Assembly: GCA_963841015.1 (NCBI GenBank)
Contig: CAWJAX010000003.1
Coordinates: forward strand, 416,001 to 480,000
Direction of reading: 5' to 3'
Source: an uncultured Methanoregulaceae archaeon
GTDB taxonomy: Archaea; Halobacteriota; Methanomicrobia; Methanomicrobiales; Methanospirillaceae
Length of the DNA stretch: 64,000 nucleotides
Below the pieces are notes generated by a model. That model saw only the letters and a program-made list of their open reading frames with translations, was not told where the DNA came from and did not search any database. This document shows positions 6,487 to 62,848 of this stretch, piece by piece; the first letter of the stretch is position 1, and each line of letters opens with the position of its first letter. Both the position numbers and the translations under genes were made by a program.

Positions 6487-6567
6487 GATAGATCAAAAAG
6501 TCAAAAATCATTAATCTGGTGATTCCAAAATATCATCCACCCCCGAGCAGGGAGTAAGGTGGTGAGA

Positions 6568-6745
6568 GTGAACCTGGTTTGAAGTAACCCAACATACCCA
6601 GTCAGAAGAGGCAGATGAAGACTATTACGAAAGATGGGGATACGTGAGACATTCACTCAATGTCCAGATTGCAAGGGAGAACGCGTTTGGAAAGATACAA
6701 CGAGGTCTCTACAAATGTTACCTCTGTCGAAAGGAGTGGAGCTGA
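6568..6745 (+). pseudogene. Decayed IS1595-like transposase N-terminal zinc-ribbon fragment
   Basis: With three frame corrections reads MNL-FEVTQHTQSEEADEDY-RKMGIRETFTQCPDCKGER-GKIQRGLYKCYLCRKEWS; GGTGGTGA RBS before the GTG. Confidence 0.55.
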
Positions 6746-11903: not shown

Positions 11904-12232
11904 GGCTCTATTCAGTTCCTTTTGTTATACTTTGAAATACAAAGCACTGGTTCGATAGAGAAGGGAATCGTGCCGGTCTCCCCATTCCGCCCCTGAGCTG
12001 AGCGATAATGACGTAGTACCTGTTTGGGGGTTATCGTAATTGGGGAGCCACAGCGGCGGGGGTGAAACCCCCTTGAGCGTTTAGCTTATAATTGAGCATT
12101 TCTACAGATCAAAAAATTAAAAACTATCTTCCCCCGTGCCTCGGAAAGGCCCTGATGCGGGCGTCCATCATATGGGGACGATTTTGATGATTTGTGTGCG
12201 AACTGAATATTAATTTCTGTTTCTCCAGAGCT
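11904..12232 (-). mobile_element. MITE-like repeat copy 2 (partial module B plus module A with its own internal end)
   Basis: Ends tttctccagagct; internal tttctacagatc at 12099-12110; starts 1 bp after the pelota stop codon. Confidence 0.8.
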
Positions 12233-13498: not shown

Positions 13499-13998
13499 AG
13501 CTCTGGAGAAACAGGCATGAAAAGAGGGTTCGCACCCAAACCATGAAAATCGTAATGTATACGAGGGAACCCCGCCTCAGGGCCTCTCCGAGGCACGGCG
13601 GGCAGGAGTTTTTTTGAATTGTTTGTTCCAGATCCGCCGCCGCGGGGACGACCGTTTGCGGGGCGGCGGCAATCATCCTGAATGGAGGATTGTGAATAAA
13701 AATCTCGTATCATACCTGAATAGTATAATTTTCATAGGAAATCCCCCCGAGTTTTTTGAACCGGTGTGGAAATTACGAGCGTGACCCCCTCTCTCCCCCA
13801 GCGGGGGGCAGCCCATGGGGGCAAGCCCCCTTGACCCCCCCAAGAGCGGTTGGATTTTTCTTTTACGCTGCCGGGAATCCACAGCCATGGTCCACGGGGC
13901 GAGCCCCGACGAGGCGGTGAGGAGCCCGTGATCCCAACGCTATCCGATACAGGTCCCCTCTTTTAGTTTTTAAAAACGAGCACGCTTTCTACAGAGAA
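13499..13998 (+). mobile_element. MITE-like repeat copy 3 (module B + module C)
   Basis: ctctggagaaa at 13501 and tttctacagag ending at 13996; junction TTTCATAGGAAA at 13730-13741. Confidence 0.88.
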
Positions 13999-26140: not shown

Positions 26141-26498
26141 CTCTGGAGAAACAGACATGAATCTATGAGGTTCATTCCCGAACCATGTAAATCGTAATAT
26201 ATTCAATGGAACCCCGCCTCAGGGCCTCTTTAGAGGCACAGCGGGCAGGGAATTTTGTCACCAATCCGCCGCGGGGGCGACCATCCGGGGGCGGCGGCGA
26301 TCATCATAAATAGAGACGTGTGAAAAAAATTCGTACCATAACGGAATAGTTCAATTTTCAGGGGAAATGCTCAATCACAAGCTCTATGCTCAAGAGGTTT
26401 CACCCCCCACCCCTGTGGTTCCCCGGTGCGATAAACTCCGAACAGGTTATCCTGGCTGGAGAGATGGGGCAAAGGCGATAAAGATTTATAACAGAATC
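26139..26498 (+). mobile_element. MITE-like repeat copy 7 (module B + 5' half of A; right end unclear)
   Basis: gactctggagaaa overlaps the upstream TGA stop; junction TTTCAGGGGAAA at 26356-26367. Confidence 0.85.
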
Positions 26499-31156: not shown

Positions 31157-31372
31157 TGCTCTGGAGAAAAAGCATGAACGCATAATGTTCAAACCAGAAC
31201 CAAAAAATTGCCTGACGATGGACACCCGTCTTTGGCCTCTCAAAAGGCACGGCGGACAGAGATTTTTTTAATCGTTCGTCACCAATCCGCTGCGGGGACG
31301 TCCTTTCGGTGGTGACGCCATCTATCACACGGTTTTTTAGCCGAAATTCACCTGAGAATATTTCATGGACAT
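31157..31372 (+). mobile_element. Degenerate MITE-like copy 8 (module B only)
   Basis: gctctggagaaa; ggcctctcaaaaggcacggcgg; ends at junction-like tttcatggac (31361). Confidence 0.75.
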
Positions 31373-48124: not shown

Positions 48125-48959
48125 ATGGATACCCTCAAAATTTATGAGCACCATAAACAACCGATCCATTCCCTATACAGTTCACGGCTGAAGATTCAGA
48201 TTCTGCTTACCTTACTCCACAATAAAGCATCCCTCGACCGGCTGCGTGAGGTCACCGGCAGCACGTCCCAGGCATTAATTCCCAAGATCCGTAACCTGGA
48301 AAAACAGGGACTTATTGAAGCGGTGAATTACGAGTACTGCCTTACTCCGCTTGGGGGGGTGGTTGCAGAGAATGTTGATGGGTTTGTCCAGCTCATCGGA
48401 GGGATCAGCCAGCATCATACATTCTTTAAAGACCATGATCTTACCGATCTTCCGGTGACCTTTCTTTCCCGGATCGGGGACCTGTATCATTCAGAACCTA
48501 AACATGATACAACGACCGATATGTTTTATGTTTATTCCCACTATCTCGAGATCCTGAAAGACGCCACGTTTATCCACGGGATTTCCTCGGTAGCAAGTCC
48601 AGGACTTGCCCAATTCATTGCAGAAAAAGTGGTCACCGGTATTCCGGTCGAACTTGTTGTAAATAATGAAGTTATCGGACTTTTAACAAAAGAGCCCTAT
48701 GCATCAAATATGCAGGCCCTTTTGGGGCATCCCAATTTTTCGGTCTGGGTAACCGGCGAGAGACTTCGTGTCGGGCTGACCGTCACCGATAAATACCTCT
48801 CACTGGGCCTTTTCAAGAAGGATTCCCACCTCTACGACAGTTCGTCTGATCTCTTCAGCAGCGATCTCCGTGCAGTTGAATGGGGAGAGGACCTTTTCCG
48901 GGTACTATAAAGAGCGTTCAATCAAGCTTGACATTGCCACATTATTCGAAGAAAAATAA
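48125..48959 (+). CDS. Winged-helix / DUF1724-type transcriptional regulator; +1 frameshift near 48900
   Basis: HTH N-terminus, VTDKYLSLGL...YD..A..WG; removing one G gives the ending FRYYKERS... Confidence 0.8.
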
Positions 48960-49039
48960 ACAAACCGGTTTTTCCCGGAATTATGAGTATTCCCGATTAA
49001 TATTCCCAATTTTTTTTAAAAGATTTTTTTTGATTTTGC

Positions 49040-49483
49040 TGCTCTGTAGAAACGAGCATGAACTGATCGGGTTCACACTCAAACCATGAAAATCTTATTT
49101 TATACGAAGGACTCCCGCATCAGGGCCTCTCCGAGGCACGGCGGGGCAGGGAGTTTTTTTTTAAATTTTTTGGTCATCGATCCGCCACGGGGGCGCCCCT
49201 TCGGGGGTGGCGGCATTCATCCTACCAGATGGATAGAGTGATAATAATTTCCGCATCATATCTGAATAATACAATTTTCATGGGAAATGCTCAATTACAT
49301 GCTAAACGCTCAAAGGGGTTTCACTCCCACCGCTGTGGCTCCCCCGATGCGATAACTCCCGATCAAGTGCTACGTCATCATCGCTCAGCGCAGGGGCGGC
49401 ATGGGCGGACAGGCACTGTCCCCTCCTTCATCCGTACCAGCATCTTGAATTTCATATCAAGGGAAAAGGAATTCTACAGAGTC
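49040..49483 (+). mobile_element. MITE-like repeat copy 9 (module B + module A, intact)
   Basis: ctctgtagaa/ttctacagag TIR; perfect 8-bp direct repeat gattttgc at 49032-49039 and 49484-49491. Confidence 0.95.
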
Positions 49484-49535
49484 GATTTTGCAGTATTTTT
49501 TTCCAGACACAGGGGAGTATCGTTGGGAATAAAAA

Positions 49536-51113
49536 TTACTCCTGCGAAAAAGTGGAGTTTTTTTTCCTGAATATCAGTACTTTACTATTTTCAAAAATTA
49601 AACGGTGATCATCAGAATTGGCAAATGATGAAATAATATATCCATTTTCAGGATTTTTGATGATATACACATGCGAATATCTGAAATTATAATTATTGGA
49701 AACATTCTCAAAACAGAAGGTATCTTCACAATTGCTTAATTCAAGGTCAGCTAACCATAACTGAGGCTTATTTGACCATTCATTTCCGTAAAATATATTG
49801 AGAGTTTTTCTGTGGGTTATAGCAGGAAACCAGTCTCCGATCCAAAACTGGTTTTTCTGTTCACTTGCAATAACATCTTTTACGATAAAAGTACTGGTAT
49901 TTTCAGTATTTTGTTGTATCCAGTACATAGCTTCGAAATGTCCTTTTTCGTCATCTTTCAGGGAAGAATACCTGGATTCAAAAAAATCCCGGTTTTGAAT
50001 GTAACTGCCTCCAAGAATCAGGACTACTAACAGAATAGTAAAAAATAATGGTAAAAGAGTTTTTTCTGGTGTTTCAGCATTCAGGGTAAACTTCAGAGCG
50101 GGAAATATCACTTTCATCAATCCAACAGAAAAAAGGATGATTACCAATATCAGAGGTATAATCACCACTCCATACCCCCCGCTTATTACCAATAAAACGA
50201 ATAAAACAGGTAAAAAAAATTCTTTTTTGGCGAGGTAATAAAAAAGGCCAAGTAAGCAGATTAATATTAAAGATAACTGATAATTATAAAAGTTAGTTAA
50301 ATAAATATTTATAAATATATTGAATACTGCAGTTGGTTGTCGTACCATAAACCCATTTATCAGAACATCAATTCCATGATTCCGGATAACGGTAAACCAC
50401 CAGGGAGAGCTGATTAACGTCGCGATAATCACAATAAACGCAACATCGAACACCGTTTTTTTCCGGGGATTGAGTAATGCAACGGCAAACAGGACCAGGG
50501 CATATGCAAAGGCACACCGGGGACTCGATACTATTAACAATCCAAAAAGAATTCCTATAAAAAAAATGAATGTATCATTCTTAAATTTCATCCATCGGAG
50601 AACAAGAATCAGACCAATAATAAAAAATAACGTACCAACACCATGAACGAGAAAGAGTCCCTGCGCAGAATAAGAAATCAGCGGGAGGTATAAAGCAAAA
50701 ATCAGTGTACTTATGAGGATTAAGGATTTTTCAGTGAATAATTCTTTTACTAAAAAATAAAACGCGAATATGCATACTATGCTGATTATCACAGGAATGT
50801 AAATAACAAGAGTCAATAACGGGACGGGGAACAGGGTGCTGCTCAATGCTAATACATAAAATATTAACGGGGGGTACGCAAAAGGGATTCCAGTTTCTGT
50901 ATAAAATGGAATATATGCCGGGTATGAAAAATTATTCTGAACAATAATTTCTGAAAAAAACAGATACAGTCCACCGTTATTGAGGGGGAGATTTGAGGAA
51001 AATCCCATAAATATATGGGGTAATAATCTTAAAAAAATCCCCAAAATTATGGAAGTTATAAGAACAAAATTAAAAAAAAATTTCGTTTGTATGAATGAAT
51101 AAAAATCTTTCAT
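49536..51113 (-). CDS. GT-C fold (ArnT/PMT/GT39-like) membrane glycosyltransferase, AT-rich
   Basis: LRL...GGLY...YPPL pattern, about 11 TM, soluble C-terminal domain. Confidence 0.75.
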   Translation of the reverse strand: MKDFYSFIQTKFFFNFVLITSIILGIFLRLLPHIFMGFSSNLPLNNGGLYLFFSEIIVQNNFSYPAYIPFYTETGIPFAYPPLIFYVLALSSTLFPVPLLTLVIYIPVIISIVCIFAFYFLVKELFTEKSLILISTLIFALYLPLISYSAQGLFLVHGVGTLFFIIGLILVLRWMKFKNDTFIFFIGILFGLLIVSSPRCAFAYALVLFAVALLNPRKKTVFDVAFIVIIATLISSPWWFTVIRNHGIDVLINGFMVRQPTAVFNIFINIYLTNFYNYQLSLILICLLGLFYYLAKKEFFLPVLFVLLVISGGYGVVIIPLILVIILFSVGLMKVIFPALKFTLNAETPEKTLLPLFFTILLVVLILGGSYIQNRDFFESRYSSLKDDEKGHFEAMYWIQQNTENTSTFIVKDVIASEQKNQFWIGDWFPAITHRKTLNIFYGNEWSNKPQLWLADLELSNCEDTFCFENVSNNYNFRYSHVYIIKNPENGYIISSFANSDDHRLIFENSKVLIFRKKNSTFSQE

Positions 51114-51456
51114 ATCTGTTCCATCTCTTTTTTTATGTAAAACTTACCTGCCGGAGGGGAAAATTTCAATAATTTTTTTATGGTTTAATCTGCGAAATTT
51201 TTAATAATTATACCGAACAACCGAAGGGAAAATTTTACTCCTTCTTTTTTTTCACTTGTATATACAGTAAGTTTCCTGATACGAATATGTTATGGAGAAG
51301 ATCAGACAATTCAATAAAGAAATTATGAGGAATAATTAAACGTAATTCTTTTGACATGACAGTAATGTTTGCTCCATCAGCAAAAGGAATGCATCCAGAA
51401 AATTCCTGAAATAAGATTAAGATTTAAAAGTAAGCTCCTAAAAAAGCAAGGCAGAG

Positions 51457-51528
51457 TGCGCCGACCGGGACTCGAACCCGGGTTTAGGCGTTGGCAACGC
51501 CTAGTGATAACCACTACACTATCGGCGC
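51457..51528 (-). tRNA. tRNA-Gly (GCC), no encoded CCA
   Basis: GCGCCGA/TCGGCGC acceptor stem, AGGCG-TTGCCAA-CGCCT anticodon arm, GGTTCGAGTCC. Confidence 0.96.
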
Positions 51529-51764
51529 AGATGTGCTCTAAAGTGTGAGCATTCAAACAATTTAAGGATATCGAACCCTTGGGCTCCGTCAGATATTCTT
51601 CCTTTGTCTCCTTCATACCATCATTTGTTCGGAAATGGCGGTCTGATCCTTCCATGATAACTGGTATTTCCGTAAGGATTCAAACCTGCACCTTGTGGTA
51701 AAGCAGGGAAAAATACACAACTATTCCAACATCTTAAAGTAACGCAATAGCCCTATCTATTACC

Positions 51765-52393
51765 TTGATGATCCCGCTCTTTGTGGATTGTTCGGACAGA
51801 CGCATTATTATATTCGGAGGAGGGGAGGTCGCATCCCGAAAAGCTGCGTATTTTTCCCGTGAGGCCGAGGTTCTGGTGATAAGCCGTTCATTCTCACACA
51901 AGATAAGCATCCTTCCGGTAAAACGCCGGATGCTGGACGCGGGAAAGGTTTCTGATGAGGAACTCAGGGAGATTGTTGACGGGGCCTTTCTGGTTGTCGG
52001 GGCATTATCAGATCCTGCCCAGAATAATCGGATTAAAAATCTCTGCGGGGCACAGGATATCCTGTTCAATAACGCGGATGGTGAAGCAGGAGATGTGATT
52101 ATTCCCTCGGTAACCAGGGGGGAAAATTACCAGATTGCGATCAGTACGGGGGGAACAGCCCGGCAGTATCCCGGTTTATACGGGAACACCTCGAATCAGA
52201 GTTCCCTGCCCTTGATGACATGATAGCATTGCAGCGTGACCTGCGGGCGCAGCTGAAACAGACTGTATCTTCCCAGTCCCGGCGGAATGCGATTCTGCGG
52301 GAAGTGTTACAGGATCGTGAGATCTGGAAAACCCTGAAAACTGATCCTGTACGGGCTTGCCAGCAGGCAAAAGAGAGGTACCTGCATGAATGA
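51765..52393 (+). CDS. sirC: Precorrin-2 dehydrogenase (SirC/CysG N-terminal type); -1 frameshift in the G6 run at 52148-52153
   Basis: MIPLF, GGGEVASRK, AISTGG; adding one base gives NSPAVSRFIRE... Confidence 0.88.
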
Positions 52394-53666
52394 ACCTGCA
52401 GCAGTTCCGATCGCGATTGCCGGTGTAAGCCATCACACGGCAAATGTTACTGCCCTCGAAACATTCCGCTTTCCAGACGAACCCGAATTCCTCAATAAAG
52501 CCGGTCAACGGTTCAAAGGGGTTCTCCTGCTCCAGACATGTAACCGTGTCGAGTTGATCGTTGAAGGAGATGCAGATGATCTCAGGGATTTCCTTACTAA
52601 ACAGGGAAGACAGGATTTCTTCATGCACAGCGGGAAAGGGGCACTTTGCCATCTCTTCAGCCTTGCATCCGGTATAGACTCGATGATTGTTGGTGAAGAC
52701 CAGATCCTCGGGCAGCTGAAAAAATCTCTTGCCGATGCACAGGAAGCCGGAACTGCAAGCAACATCCTCGAATTCTGCATCAACAAAGCAGTACACGTGG
52801 GGATCGAAGTGCGTAAACGCACCATGATCAACCGTGGGGCAGTCTCCGTGGGGTCTGCGGCGGTACTGCTTGCTGAATCCCAGATCGGGAGTCTTGAAGG
52901 CAAACATATCCTCGTCGTAGGAAGTGGAGAAATGGGGATGCTGGTCGCCCAGGCACTTGCAGCAAAGGACTTAACAGCCATGTATGTGGCAAACCGTACC
53001 TACGGCCGGGCAGTTGTCCTTGCTGACAAAATCGGGGGAAAGGCTGTGCGGCTGTCCGAACTCTACCATTATATCACGCTGTCAGATGTTGTGATCTCCT
53101 GCACATCTGCCCCCCACCCGGTCATCCATACAAAAGAGCTGGAGCTGGCGATGAAAAACCGGTGCTGGCCGGTTGAAGGACATCCCCGCCCACTGATACT
53201 GATTGATATCGCCCAGCCCCGGGATATCGAGGACGGGGCATCGACCATCGATGGTATCCGCCTTTTTTCTATCGATAACCTTCGCACGATAAATGAGCAG
53301 ACCATGAGCACACGGAAAGCAGAGGCTGAGCGGGCTCGTGAGTTCGTGGATATGGAACTCGAAGTTTTCCTCCGTCACCTCAACCGGAAATCTGCTGATG
53401 ACCTGCTCGCCGCACTGCACACATGGGCTGAAGCCGTGCGGATCCGTGAACGGGATCGGGCACTCGCCCGATTTGGTTGTCCCGACACAAAAACGGCAGA
53501 GATTGTTGATGACCTGACCCGGGTTCTTGCAAAAAAACTTCTTACCGATGCAACCTTTTCTATCCGTGAGAGTGCTGAGGAGGGAGAACTTGCAGCTGCA
53601 AAGGCACTGGTAAAAGCAATCATGCAGGGAGACAGGATCGGGATCGAACTATGCCGCAGGGAATAA
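52386..53666 (+). CDS. hemA: Glutamyl-tRNA reductase
   Basis: TCNRVE, GEDQILGQ, GSGEMG, DIAQPRDI. Confidence 0.96.
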   Translation: MNEPAAVPIAIAGVSHHTANVTALETFRFPDEPEFLNKAGQRFKGVLLLQTCNRVELIVEGDADDLRDFLTKQGRQDFFMHSGKGALCHLFSLASGIDSMIVGEDQILGQLKKSLADAQEAGTASNILEFCINKAVHVGIEVRKRTMINRGAVSVGSAAVLLAESQIGSLEGKHILVVGSGEMGMLVAQALAAKDLTAMYVANRTYGRAVVLADKIGGKAVRLSELYHYITLSDVVISCTSAPHPVIHTKELELAMKNRCWPVEGHPRPLILIDIAQPRDIEDGASTIDGIRLFSIDNLRTINEQTMSTRKAEAERAREFVDMELEVFLRHLNRKSADDLLAALHTWAEAVRIRERDRALARFGCPDTKTAEIVDDLTRVLAKKLLTDATFSIRESAEEGELAAAKALVKAIMQGDRIGIELCRRE

Positions 53667-53862
53667 TCAGCTTCCGCGTTTTCTCATCTTAAAATCCGGT
53701 ATGACGGGATAGTCCCATCATCAGAAAAACTCTTCACCTGATACGGAATGCTTCGCGATGAGTGACTATTTTTGACCCGGTGCAGACCGGATCCTCATCA
53801 AAAAAGACGGGTACTAATCCCTTACACAACTCGGGAGTGAAGGGAATATACTGCATATTGTG

Positions 53863-54504
53863 TCAGGGAATCTTAGCATACGCTTTTTGTGCAAGGCTGG
53901 CAAGAGTTGCATAGTCAGCCCCTTCACCGGTCATACGGAGCACCTCAAGGATGTCACCTTTCGAAAAGATAATCTCGACAAAGTCCTGCTGAACCGTTCC
54001 CTCACCCGAACCGGGACCCGGCAGATTCCCGGAGACGGGTTCCGGAATTATGATGGTGTGTGCAGTTCCTGAGAAAGCCTGGCTGTAGCTGCCGAGAGCC
54101 GGGGAAGAAAGGTTAGAAAATATCATAGTATTGTCGGATCGTTCCTGTTTTTCTGCAAGTGCAGCTATGGCGGGAATATTTTTTGCAGGATAACGGGTGA
54201 CAGTCTGAAGAATCTCAATCTGGCCGGAAATTCCCTCAGGGGGACGGGTAAAACGCACGACATATCCCTGCTGCCAGCCGAGATCCCGTGCGAGCTTACT
54301 TACTTCAGGGGAGTTTTTCACCCTGCTCTCGCGAAGGGTAAAATTTTGTGGGATCTCTGAAGGGGTCAGGACCAGCGATTCAAGGGTTATCTGTTCAGGA
54401 GTTGATGGGGCGGGGGCCGCTGTCCCGGCAAGCCCCGTACATCCCGTTGCAAGAACGAGTGAACAGACAAGAATTGCAATGATCAAACCCCGGGAACTGC
54501 TCAT
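53863..54504 (-). CDS. Predicted lipoprotein
   Basis: ATGC lipobox; A..AYAKI C-terminus. Confidence 0.75.
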   Translation of the reverse strand: MSSSRGLIIAILVCSLVLATGCTGLAGTAAPAPSTPEQITLESLVLTPSEIPQNFTLRESRVKNSPEVSKLARDLGWQQGYVVRFTRPPEGISGQIEILQTVTRYPAKNIPAIAALAEKQERSDNTMIFSNLSSPALGSYSQAFSGTAHTIIIPEPVSGNLPGPGSGEGTVQQDFVEIIFSKGDILEVLRMTGEGADYATLASLAQKAYAKIP

Positions 54505-54601
54505 TTGTTATGATCATTTAGGTTACTACAAAAATATGTCCATTTTGTTTCCTGCAGTTTGTTGCTCCGATTATCTCCGCATTAAGAACAGACTATTTCT
54601 G

Positions 54602-54932
54602 TGTTCTGGAGAAATGAGCATAAACTGATCGGGTTCACACACAAACCATGAAAATCGTAATGTATATGTTGGAACCCCGCTTCAGGGCCTCTTTAGAGGC
54701 ACGGCGGGCAGGGGTTTTTTTTGAATTGTTTGTTCCAGATCCACCGCGGGGGCGACCCTTCGGGGGCGGTGGCGATCATCGTACATGGAGGTGTGTTAAA
54801 AAAAACTCGTATCATAACTGAATAGTTCGATTTTCATGGGAAATGCTCAATTACATGCTAAACGCTCAAGGGGGTTTCACCCCCGCCGCTTGTTTGCCTG
54901 AGTCCGTGACTAATGTGCGTTTCTACAGAGCC
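54602..54932 (+). mobile_element. MITE-like repeat copy 10 (module B + truncated A + short tail)
   Basis: ttctggagaaa...ttctacagagcc; perfect 8-bp direct repeat tatttctg at 54594-54601 and 54933-54940. Confidence 0.95.
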
Positions 54933-55186
54933 TATTTCTGTTCCTGCTCTGAGCCCCTGATGCAATAGTATGCTTTTTTGAGTCCCAGGACTGGTTTGAG
55001 CGGACAAGCCGGGCAGACGCATCCCTTTTTATCAAAGGTGCAGGTCGGGCTTTTTCCCGTTACACAGAATAAGAGTTCATCTCCAGCCCGCATGCACTCA
55101 TTATATGTCGGGCACGGTTCACAGATACACCTGGCCCGGTTCTGTTCATTGTTGTTGATGTCGTTTTGCATATTTTTTAGCTCCAT
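54932..55186 (-). CDS. Cys-rich DUF2769-like protein
   Basis: CxCxxCPTY..C...LFC..GKS.C.....CxCxxC...YYC. Confidence 0.85.
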   Translation of the reverse strand: MELKNMQNDINNNEQNRARCICEPCPTYNECMRAGDELLFCVTGKSPTCTFDKKGCVCPACPLKPVLGLKKAYYCIRGSEQEQK

Positions 55187-62417: not shown

Positions 62418-62848
62418 GGCTCCGTAGAATTCCTGTTCTATCGATATGAAATTCAAGATGCTGGTACTATGACAGAGGGGACAGTGCCTCTTCCCCCATA
62501 CCGACCCTGCACTGAGCGATGATGACGTTGCATCTGTTCGGAATTTATCGCATCGGGGGAGCCACAGCGCAGGGGTGAAACCGCCTTGAGCGTATGCTTG
62601 CAATTGAGCATTTCCCATGGAAATTGAACTATTCAGGTAGGATGCGAGATTTTTTTCACACCCCTTCATGTACGACGATCACCTCCGCCGAAGGGTTGCC
62701 CCCAGCAGCGGATCAGGAACAAACAATTCAAAAAAACCCCTGCCCGCCGTGCCTCAGAGAGACCATGAGGAGGGGTTCCATCGTATACAGTACGATTTTC
62801 ATGGTTCGGGTGTAACCCCCAGAAATTCATGTCTGTTTCTCCAGAGTC
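62418..62848 (-). mobile_element. MITE-like repeat copy 12 (module B + module A)
   Basis: ggctccgtagaa...tttctccagagtc; flanks aatttttt and attttttt (7/8); junction at 62611-62622. Confidence 0.92.

Follow-up and report, generated by a model that had tools for sequence, protein, structure and literature searches.

A new MITE family of Methanoregula with IS5-type ends and a conserved two-hairpin cargo

Module B, a repeat of ~236 nt, is the structured cargo of a non-autonomous Methanoregula MITE with IS5-type ends, and the element that carries it is a new MITE family with a conserved hairpin cargo. The window analyzed here is a stretch of 64,000 nt that corresponds to positions 416001-480000 of contig C3 in a 2.28-Mb Methanoregula genome (5 contigs, ~48% G+C, 94% complete). 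The two hairpins of module B, H1 and H2, are clearly kept intact across the genus, and compensatory change at these hairpins is real yet modest, with three pairs carrying most of it. Our main reading, to which we give a probability of about 0.45, is that the MITE cargo is moved in trans by an IS5 DDE transposase and that its hairpins matter as a single-stranded molecule of the B sense, probably RNA.

Copy 10 of module B lies at 54602-54840 on the plus strand of the window (nhmmer profile positions 2-236, score 242), and its sequence was read directly. The left terminal inverted repeat (~54602-54614, +) is followed by the structured cargo, in which the 5' arm of a long-range inverted repeat named P1 (CCATGAAAATCG, 54646-54657, +) has its partner, the 3' arm CGATTTTCATGG, at 54828-54839 (+). 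Between these arms are H1 (54676-54708, +), with the outer stem CCCGCT/GGCGGG and the inner hairpin GCCTC-TTTA-GAGGC, a T8 run (54715-54722, +) located 6 nt 3' of H1, and H2 (54741-54772, +), in which CCACCGC (54741-54747) pairs with GCGGTGG (54766-54772) and encloses an 8-nt 5' internal loop and CCC-TTCG-GGG. Copy 9 (49042-49284, +) has H1 at ~49114-49145 and H2 at 49182-49213, where CCGCCAC (49182-49188) and GTGGCGG (49207-49213) enclose CCCC-TTCG-GGGG, and it is joined to module A (49285-49485, +), which ends in the right terminal inverted repeat GGAATTCTACAGAGTC. In copy 7 (26141-26364, +), H2 occupies 26266-26297 with the stem CCGCCGC (26266-26272)/GCGGCGG (26291-26297), and a deletion has removed the T run together with some of the spacer. 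These three versions of one stem had been described in the original prediction and were all found at the given positions, as were a second hairpin, gcctc-loop-gaggc, whose loop varies (TCC, TTTA, and others), and the hairpins of module A.

Two further plus-strand copies were detected by nhmmer, one at 13501-13738 (C3:429501-429738) and a diverged one at 31159-31326 (C3:447159-447326). On the minus strand are copy 12 (62614-62846), which carries the H1 variant gtctc/gaggc, and the truncated copy 2 (12110-12230), which has H1 only, in the variant gcctt/gaggc. Directly beyond the truncation, which falls after H1, an A-type MITE begins with its left end ctgtagaaatgctcaat (window 12085-12110, -), and this arrangement suggests a nested insertion or a deletion at copy 2.

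In profile columns, the H1 consensus consists of an outer stem of 6 bp (CCCGCC/GGCGGG), an inner stem of 5 bp (GCCTC/GAGGC), and a variable loop, and the H2 consensus consists of an outer stem of 7 bp (CCGCCGC/GCGGCGG), an 8-nt 5' internal loop (GGGGGCGN), and CCC-(T/G)TCG-GGG. The small inner hairpin of H2 is of the C(UUCG)G type, and the inner part of H2 allows two mutually exclusive foldings, GGGG-GCG-CCCC or CCCC-TTCG-GGGG. The spacer between H1 and H2 contains a T run of at least 5 in 61 of 87 copies, while the T run is absent from some relatives (e.g., L021). The 12-bp inverted repeat P1 brackets the two-hairpin core, and of the 13 pair columns tested in P1, 10 hold Watson-Crick pairs in 80-97% of the copies. 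Upstream of H1, both this genome and the relatives have a conserved ATGAAAATC block and an A/T-rich octamer. We rejected an ORF from the conserved block through H1: by eye, the only short frame through H1 is broken by loop indels that shift it between copies.

The MITEs are bounded by terminal inverted repeats of 14 bp (GGCTCTGGAGAAAT/AATTCTCCAGAGCC) and, as judged by eye in a few copies, by A/T-rich target duplications of 8 bp, such as GAATAAAT at C5:139583 and CGAAAATT at C3:194785. Three size classes (~200, ~400-450, and 1003 bp) have these ends in common. Module A is the MITE of ~200 nt, with ~85 BLAST matches in this genome, 50 of them near full length, and module B is placed between the left terminal repeat and the module A body. 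In several copies, a third repeat module replaces the right terminal repeat 3' of module A (...GGAATTACCATGAAAAACCCACGGTTATTCATCATGTTTGCCTGAGT), as observed at 54891-54935 of the window and also at C2:217324, C2:545002, and C4:72957.

The 1003-bp element is present at three sites in the genome, on C3 (L151, G000:C3:194700-195900), at C2:353345-354347, and at C5:79675-80677, and its ends (GGCTCTGTAGAAATGCT... and ...GGAATTCTACAAAGCC) match the MITE ends. Its transposase is an IS5-family DDE enzyme, matching NF033579 with 214 bits (cut-off 140) and PF01609 with 84.9 bits (cut-off 23). An ISL3-family parent was rejected, as the family search gave IS5. The ORF of the 1003-bp element crosses the terminal inverted repeat into the flank, with no stop codon inside the element. 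The interior of this parent and module B have only the ends in common, so module B is acquired cargo and not a deletion remnant. The site C3:549697-549729 is empty in this genome (G000) and is occupied in G017 by a ~900-bp insert with a B+A MITE (L002:997-1891), and the genes flanking it are 88-93% identical between the two genomes. Because the site is filled in G017 and empty here, the MITE family has been active since the split from the G017 lineage.

Module B has 63 nhmmer matches in this genome, 45 of which span both hairpins. BLAST searches with copy 10 gave matches in every one of the 24 further Methanoregula genomes that were searched, and none in 16 genomes that represent five other families of the order. 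The exact H2 motif occurs in at least 120 stretches in public genomes, and among the matches listed, nearly all are titled Methanoregula, Methanoregulaceae, or Methanomicrobiales MAGs, with one Methanolinea and one Nitrospirota. The record titled 'Nitrospirota bacterium' (a 2.35-Mb contig) holds a full B+A MITE at L080:3333-3571 and a second B copy at 6518-6684, within 8 kb. This record could be mislabelled or mis-binned, or the locus could have arrived by transfer, and the three proteins scanned favour none of these over the others.

The best conserved part of module B in relatives is the two-hairpin core, which also occurs there in alternative contexts: as one hairpin alone, in tandem arrays, or joined to another 3' continuation that includes a third hairpin. 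The third hairpin (GGGGGC-GACA/ATCA-GCCCCC) follows H2 in the B-poor relatives G020 and G004 (L190/L021, L193, L194, L197, L199, and L200). Module A of this genome contains a similar hairpin, ...TATGGGGGGACAGGCACTGTCCCC, which hints at a common origin of the two. At L021:1290-1440 (-) in G020, several direct repeats like GATTTTCAAAAAA(A)G lie just past the hairpin unit. Tandem arrays of the H1-H2 core were found at L149:2769-3186 and at L112:2760-3285 (-), with a spacing of ~190-370 nt. A housekeeping ncRNA locus was considered and rejected, as the copies in G020, G004, and G019 have the element alone in common and not the flanks.

In these same three relatives, the hairpins also stand single (H1 alone, H2 alone, or H2 with the third hairpin) and are scattered in intergenic DNA. 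Such REP-like scatter is what would be expected if H1 and H2 were archaeal REP-like palindromes spread by a Y1 (RAYT/IS200-type) transposase, which we regard as extremely improbable. The Y1 transposase family PF01797 has no match in this genome (94% complete) and, among the 41 genomes examined in the genus, is matched in only 5, none of which is among the hairpin-rich genomes G007, G017, G021, and G023, and therefore this is not a REP/RAYT system. Moreover, at least one stand-alone unit, in G020, is flanked by degenerate terminal repeats that by eye resemble the IS5 type.

Pairing was evaluated on copies collected without bias towards the structure. Of the 150 copies in the unbiased set, 63 belong to this genome, 29 come from the BLAST loci, and the remaining 58 were additional copies within the pattern loci; the other 129 of the 279 distinct copies were left out because they had been chosen by the H2 pattern itself. 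Pairs were counted in an 87-copy MAFFT alignment (1816 cells), with shuffles (500) and slid partners as controls, and covariation was gauged by APC-corrected G-test ranks, non-partner control pairs, shuffles, and slid partners. The results show that 89.0% of the 1816 cells in H1 and H2 hold standard pairs, compared with 44.8-53.5% for slid partners. Conservation across the genus is also far higher in the stems than in loop or spacer sequence. In unpaired columns of the module B copies, the values for C>T and G>A are 0.167 and 0.155, and the stems, with 0.080 and 0.053, respectively, show 2-3 times fewer transitions. The original prediction had proposed selection on secondary structure, and these results, together with a roughly threefold excess of compensatory double changes, support the proposal, while the covariation itself is modest.

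Cells changed on both sides number 32, compared with 11.4±3.0 after shuffling (0 of 500 shuffles reach 32) and 18-23 for slid partners, although shuffle and binomial figures overstate significance because the copies are related. The covariation score of the H1/H2 pairs is 0.144, compared with 0.046-0.072 for the slid controls, while 12 pairs show two-sided change in the 87 copies, a number inside the slid-control range of 8-13. True partners average 2.48 double Watson-Crick changes per pair, and the 380 control pairs, whose columns are complementary without being partners, average 0.78 with a maximum of 5. Three true pairs lie above that maximum, namely H2 141-162 (G-C to A-T in 12 copies), H1 87-93 (T-A to C-G in 11 copies), and H2 136-167 (C-G to G-C in 6 copies), and they rank 6, 15, and 16 of 27,730 by the APC-corrected G-test. 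When the same test is limited to the 63 copies of this genome, none of the proposed pairs does better than rank 525 of 27,730, so the expectation of more paired change than chance failed within the genome and was borne out moderately across the genus. The RNAalifold check that had been suggested returned no pairs on the 87-copy alignment or on all 89 full-length copies, and recovered H1 and the outer H2 stem on 21 relatives (one copy each) plus copy 10, where the covariation term contributes -0.4 of -32.45 kcal/mol. Single copies fold marginally better than their shuffles (z -1.78 for the plus strand and -2.06 for the minus strand). A Fitch event count on a FastTree of the non-stem columns was dropped; the tree split copy 10 from its closest relative.

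These data bear on the explanation that the hairpins have no function and that the paired changes come from quasi-palindrome template switching or from subfamily ancestry, the GC-rich stems being young. The two double substitutions in the window are indeed two independent events, as had been claimed, and each is common to close kin: the copy 10 change is also present in C3:406236, and the copy 9 change in C3:492224, C2:545257, and one G017 copy. As subfamily markers of one event each, they fit this explanation, as do the G-test scores of subfamily-diagnostic column pairs and of adjacent columns, which are as high as those of the best stem pairs, and the slid controls, which come near the real structure in the number of covarying pairs. 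However, we consider a lack of function unlikely, since transitions are rare in the stems despite their G+C-rich composition, and since 72% of the double changes at true partners are Watson-Crick, compared with 44% in controls. The asymmetric internal loops (GGGGGCGN in H2 and TCAGG/AC in H1), which template switching should erase, persist genus-wide. Template switching is also strand-symmetric and does not predict that G·U pairs outnumber A·C pairs.

Such an excess of G·U over A·C is observed in the B sense. It had been pointed out that the stem variants gcctt/gaggc (~12143-12155, -) and gtctc/gaggc (~62750-62765, -) give T·G wobbles in the B sense only, and this is correct. Overall, the ratio of G·U to A·C in the B sense is 152:89, to which this genome contributes 77:45 and the relatives 75:44. 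All four helices show the same asymmetry, and alignment A1 (87 copies) gives 105:69, or 34:17 per sequence and 16:5 per pair, all of these counts including related copies with no kinship correction. Because C>T and G>A are equal in unpaired columns (0.167 versus 0.155, as above), there is no mutational strand bias. The G·U excess thus points weakly to a single folded B-sense strand, and it fits RNA or single-stranded DNA alike. As RNA, 76 of the 87 copies give a better fold on the plus strand than on the minus strand; this result was discounted, as the plus strand is G+U-rich and the comparison had no composition control.

It is conceivable, though somewhat unlikely, that the hairpins act as DNA, in single-stranded or cruciform form, and aid a transposase or host factor to find, excise, or copy the MITE, with selection working on active master copies. 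The insertions are younger than the species split, as seen at the site empty here and filled in G017, so the conservation of the stems is kept largely in active element lineages, which suits this possibility. Single-stranded DNA tolerates G·T wobble, so the 152:89 ratio fits as well, and on the minus strand the H2 loop has the sequence C-GAA-G, which is a motif of stable DNA mini-hairpins. However, the A-only MITE with the same ends reaches its ~85 BLAST matches without module B, indicating that module B is dispensable for mobility. It is well established that DDE transposition of the IS5 family uses double-stranded ends, which also argues against a role of folded DNA, and the 1003-bp parent is absent among the nhmmer matches for module B in this genome. 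By eye, the orientation of the copies along contig C3 follows no obvious pattern.

The gene context of the copies is biased towards gene 3' ends. The flanking genes are convergent for 61 copies and divergent for 23 (p=4e-5; crude ORF calls), and a preference for A/T-run targets alone could be the source of this bias. In tandem gene contexts, copy orientation shows no significant bias, as 41 copies follow the direction of the upstream gene and 27 oppose it (p=0.11; crude ORF picks). Metatranscriptome contigs of four runs from three studies cover the repeats, and these contigs carry neither strand nor ends. The contig depth summed over H1 is very high (e.g., X3: 1558 at 49143 versus ~4 at 49162), a pile-up that arises because H1 is the most conserved stretch and depth is summed over many copies and organisms. 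Some contigs bridge H1, the T run, and H2, and the locus-specific depth over module B is 4-6, like that of the flanking genes, with DNA carry-over possible.

This depth also bears on the possibility that module B contains an independent small RNA gene, with an archaeal promoter inside the element and the long-range helix CCAUGAAAAUCG/CGAUUUUCAUGG as its closing stem. Such a gene would account for the conserved ATGAAAATC block and the A/T-rich octamer upstream of H1, for the 12-bp inverted repeat around the core, and for the tandem core arrays in relatives (L149, L112). However, locus-specific RNA contigs over module B are no deeper than those over its neighbours, and the distance from an archaeal TATA box to the start site is ~23-27 nt, which would put the start inside H1. 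The inverted repeat is also not a closing helix in some relatives: in the L149 and L112 arrays, CATGAAA/TTTCATG forms a local hairpin and not a bracket around the unit. In addition, the module B copies of different genomes are not syntenic, and Rfam gives no match to the module, with only two tRNAs reaching the gathering score in the whole window and the best match over B+A of copy 9 having E=1.6. We consider a small RNA gene quite unlikely.

According to our main reading, an IS5-family DDE transposase would move the module B MITE in trans, and the B-sense RNA would most probably be made by read-through from a neighbouring gene. The hairpin with its oligo-U stretch may then be a 3'-end termination or protection module, as suggested by analogy with bacterial REP, BOX, and SPRITE repeats, and if copies with the hairpin module are harmless or useful at gene ends, the module would persist in active element lineages. 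An action of the hairpins as RNA is plausible. H1 and the T run are not a canonical bacterial intrinsic terminator: the spacer from H1 to the T run is 5-7 nt, where a terminator of the bacterial type needs 0-2 nt, and a consensus terminator scan of 48900-55100 did not flag H1. We further propose, tentatively, that H1-H2, with the third hairpin in some species, might be a mobile RNA module complete in itself, which is delivered to gene ends by an IS5-type MITE and there sets or protects mRNA 3' ends; it would be the equivalent, in archaea, of REP, BOX, and SPRITE.

Should the hairpins indeed affect transcripts, the element would be an example from archaea of ready-made 3'-end signals dispersed by transposition, and its copies would offer a natural set of stem variants for studies of termination and RNA decay in methanogens. 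If the mobile RNA module is real, selection for RNA folding would be maintaining a 3'-UTR system carried by transposons in this genus. If the hairpins have no action on transcripts, the element is an ordinary, nicely modular MITE family.

A full-text literature search combining Methanoregula with repeat, hairpin, or MITE gave no description of this element. The portions of PMC10969869 drawn on here present MITEs as little studied in archaea and mention few archaeal ones and none from Methanoregula, and an excerpt of a 2026 survey of archaeal insertion sequences reports one Methanoregula genome with an insertion-sequence content of 12.82% (PMC13343696). The closest likeness in the mode of spread is to insertion sequences and MITEs of the IS5 family, which have terminal inverted repeats, an 8-bp target duplication, and a DDE transposase of NF033579/PF01609; the difference is that the interior of module B is unrelated to the interior of its parent.

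In their structured part, H1 and H2 resemble the REP, BIME, and REPIN sequences of Proteobacteria, which are described as imperfect, GC-rich palindromes, 30-40 nt long and situated at gene ends, that form mosaics and keep their stems, with termination and mRNA stability as proposed roles. REP sequences depend on RAYT, a Y1 transposase, whereas this genome is without RAYT. H1 and H2 also differ in that they are not inverted copies of one unit and are carried in a MITE that has inverted repeats at its ends and a target duplication. According to PMC10969869, the BOX and SPRITE elements of pneumococci are small, non-autonomous, multicopy, intergenic modular repeats that adopt stable folds when transcribed, and SPRITE has a terminator-like hairpin. 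Module B is likewise part of a small, multicopy, modular, and non-autonomous repeat with predicted folds, while BOX and SPRITE are bacterial, unrelated in sequence, and linked to another parent transposase. In module B, the structured part is cargo within an archaeal IS5-type MITE, and its effect on transcripts is putative.
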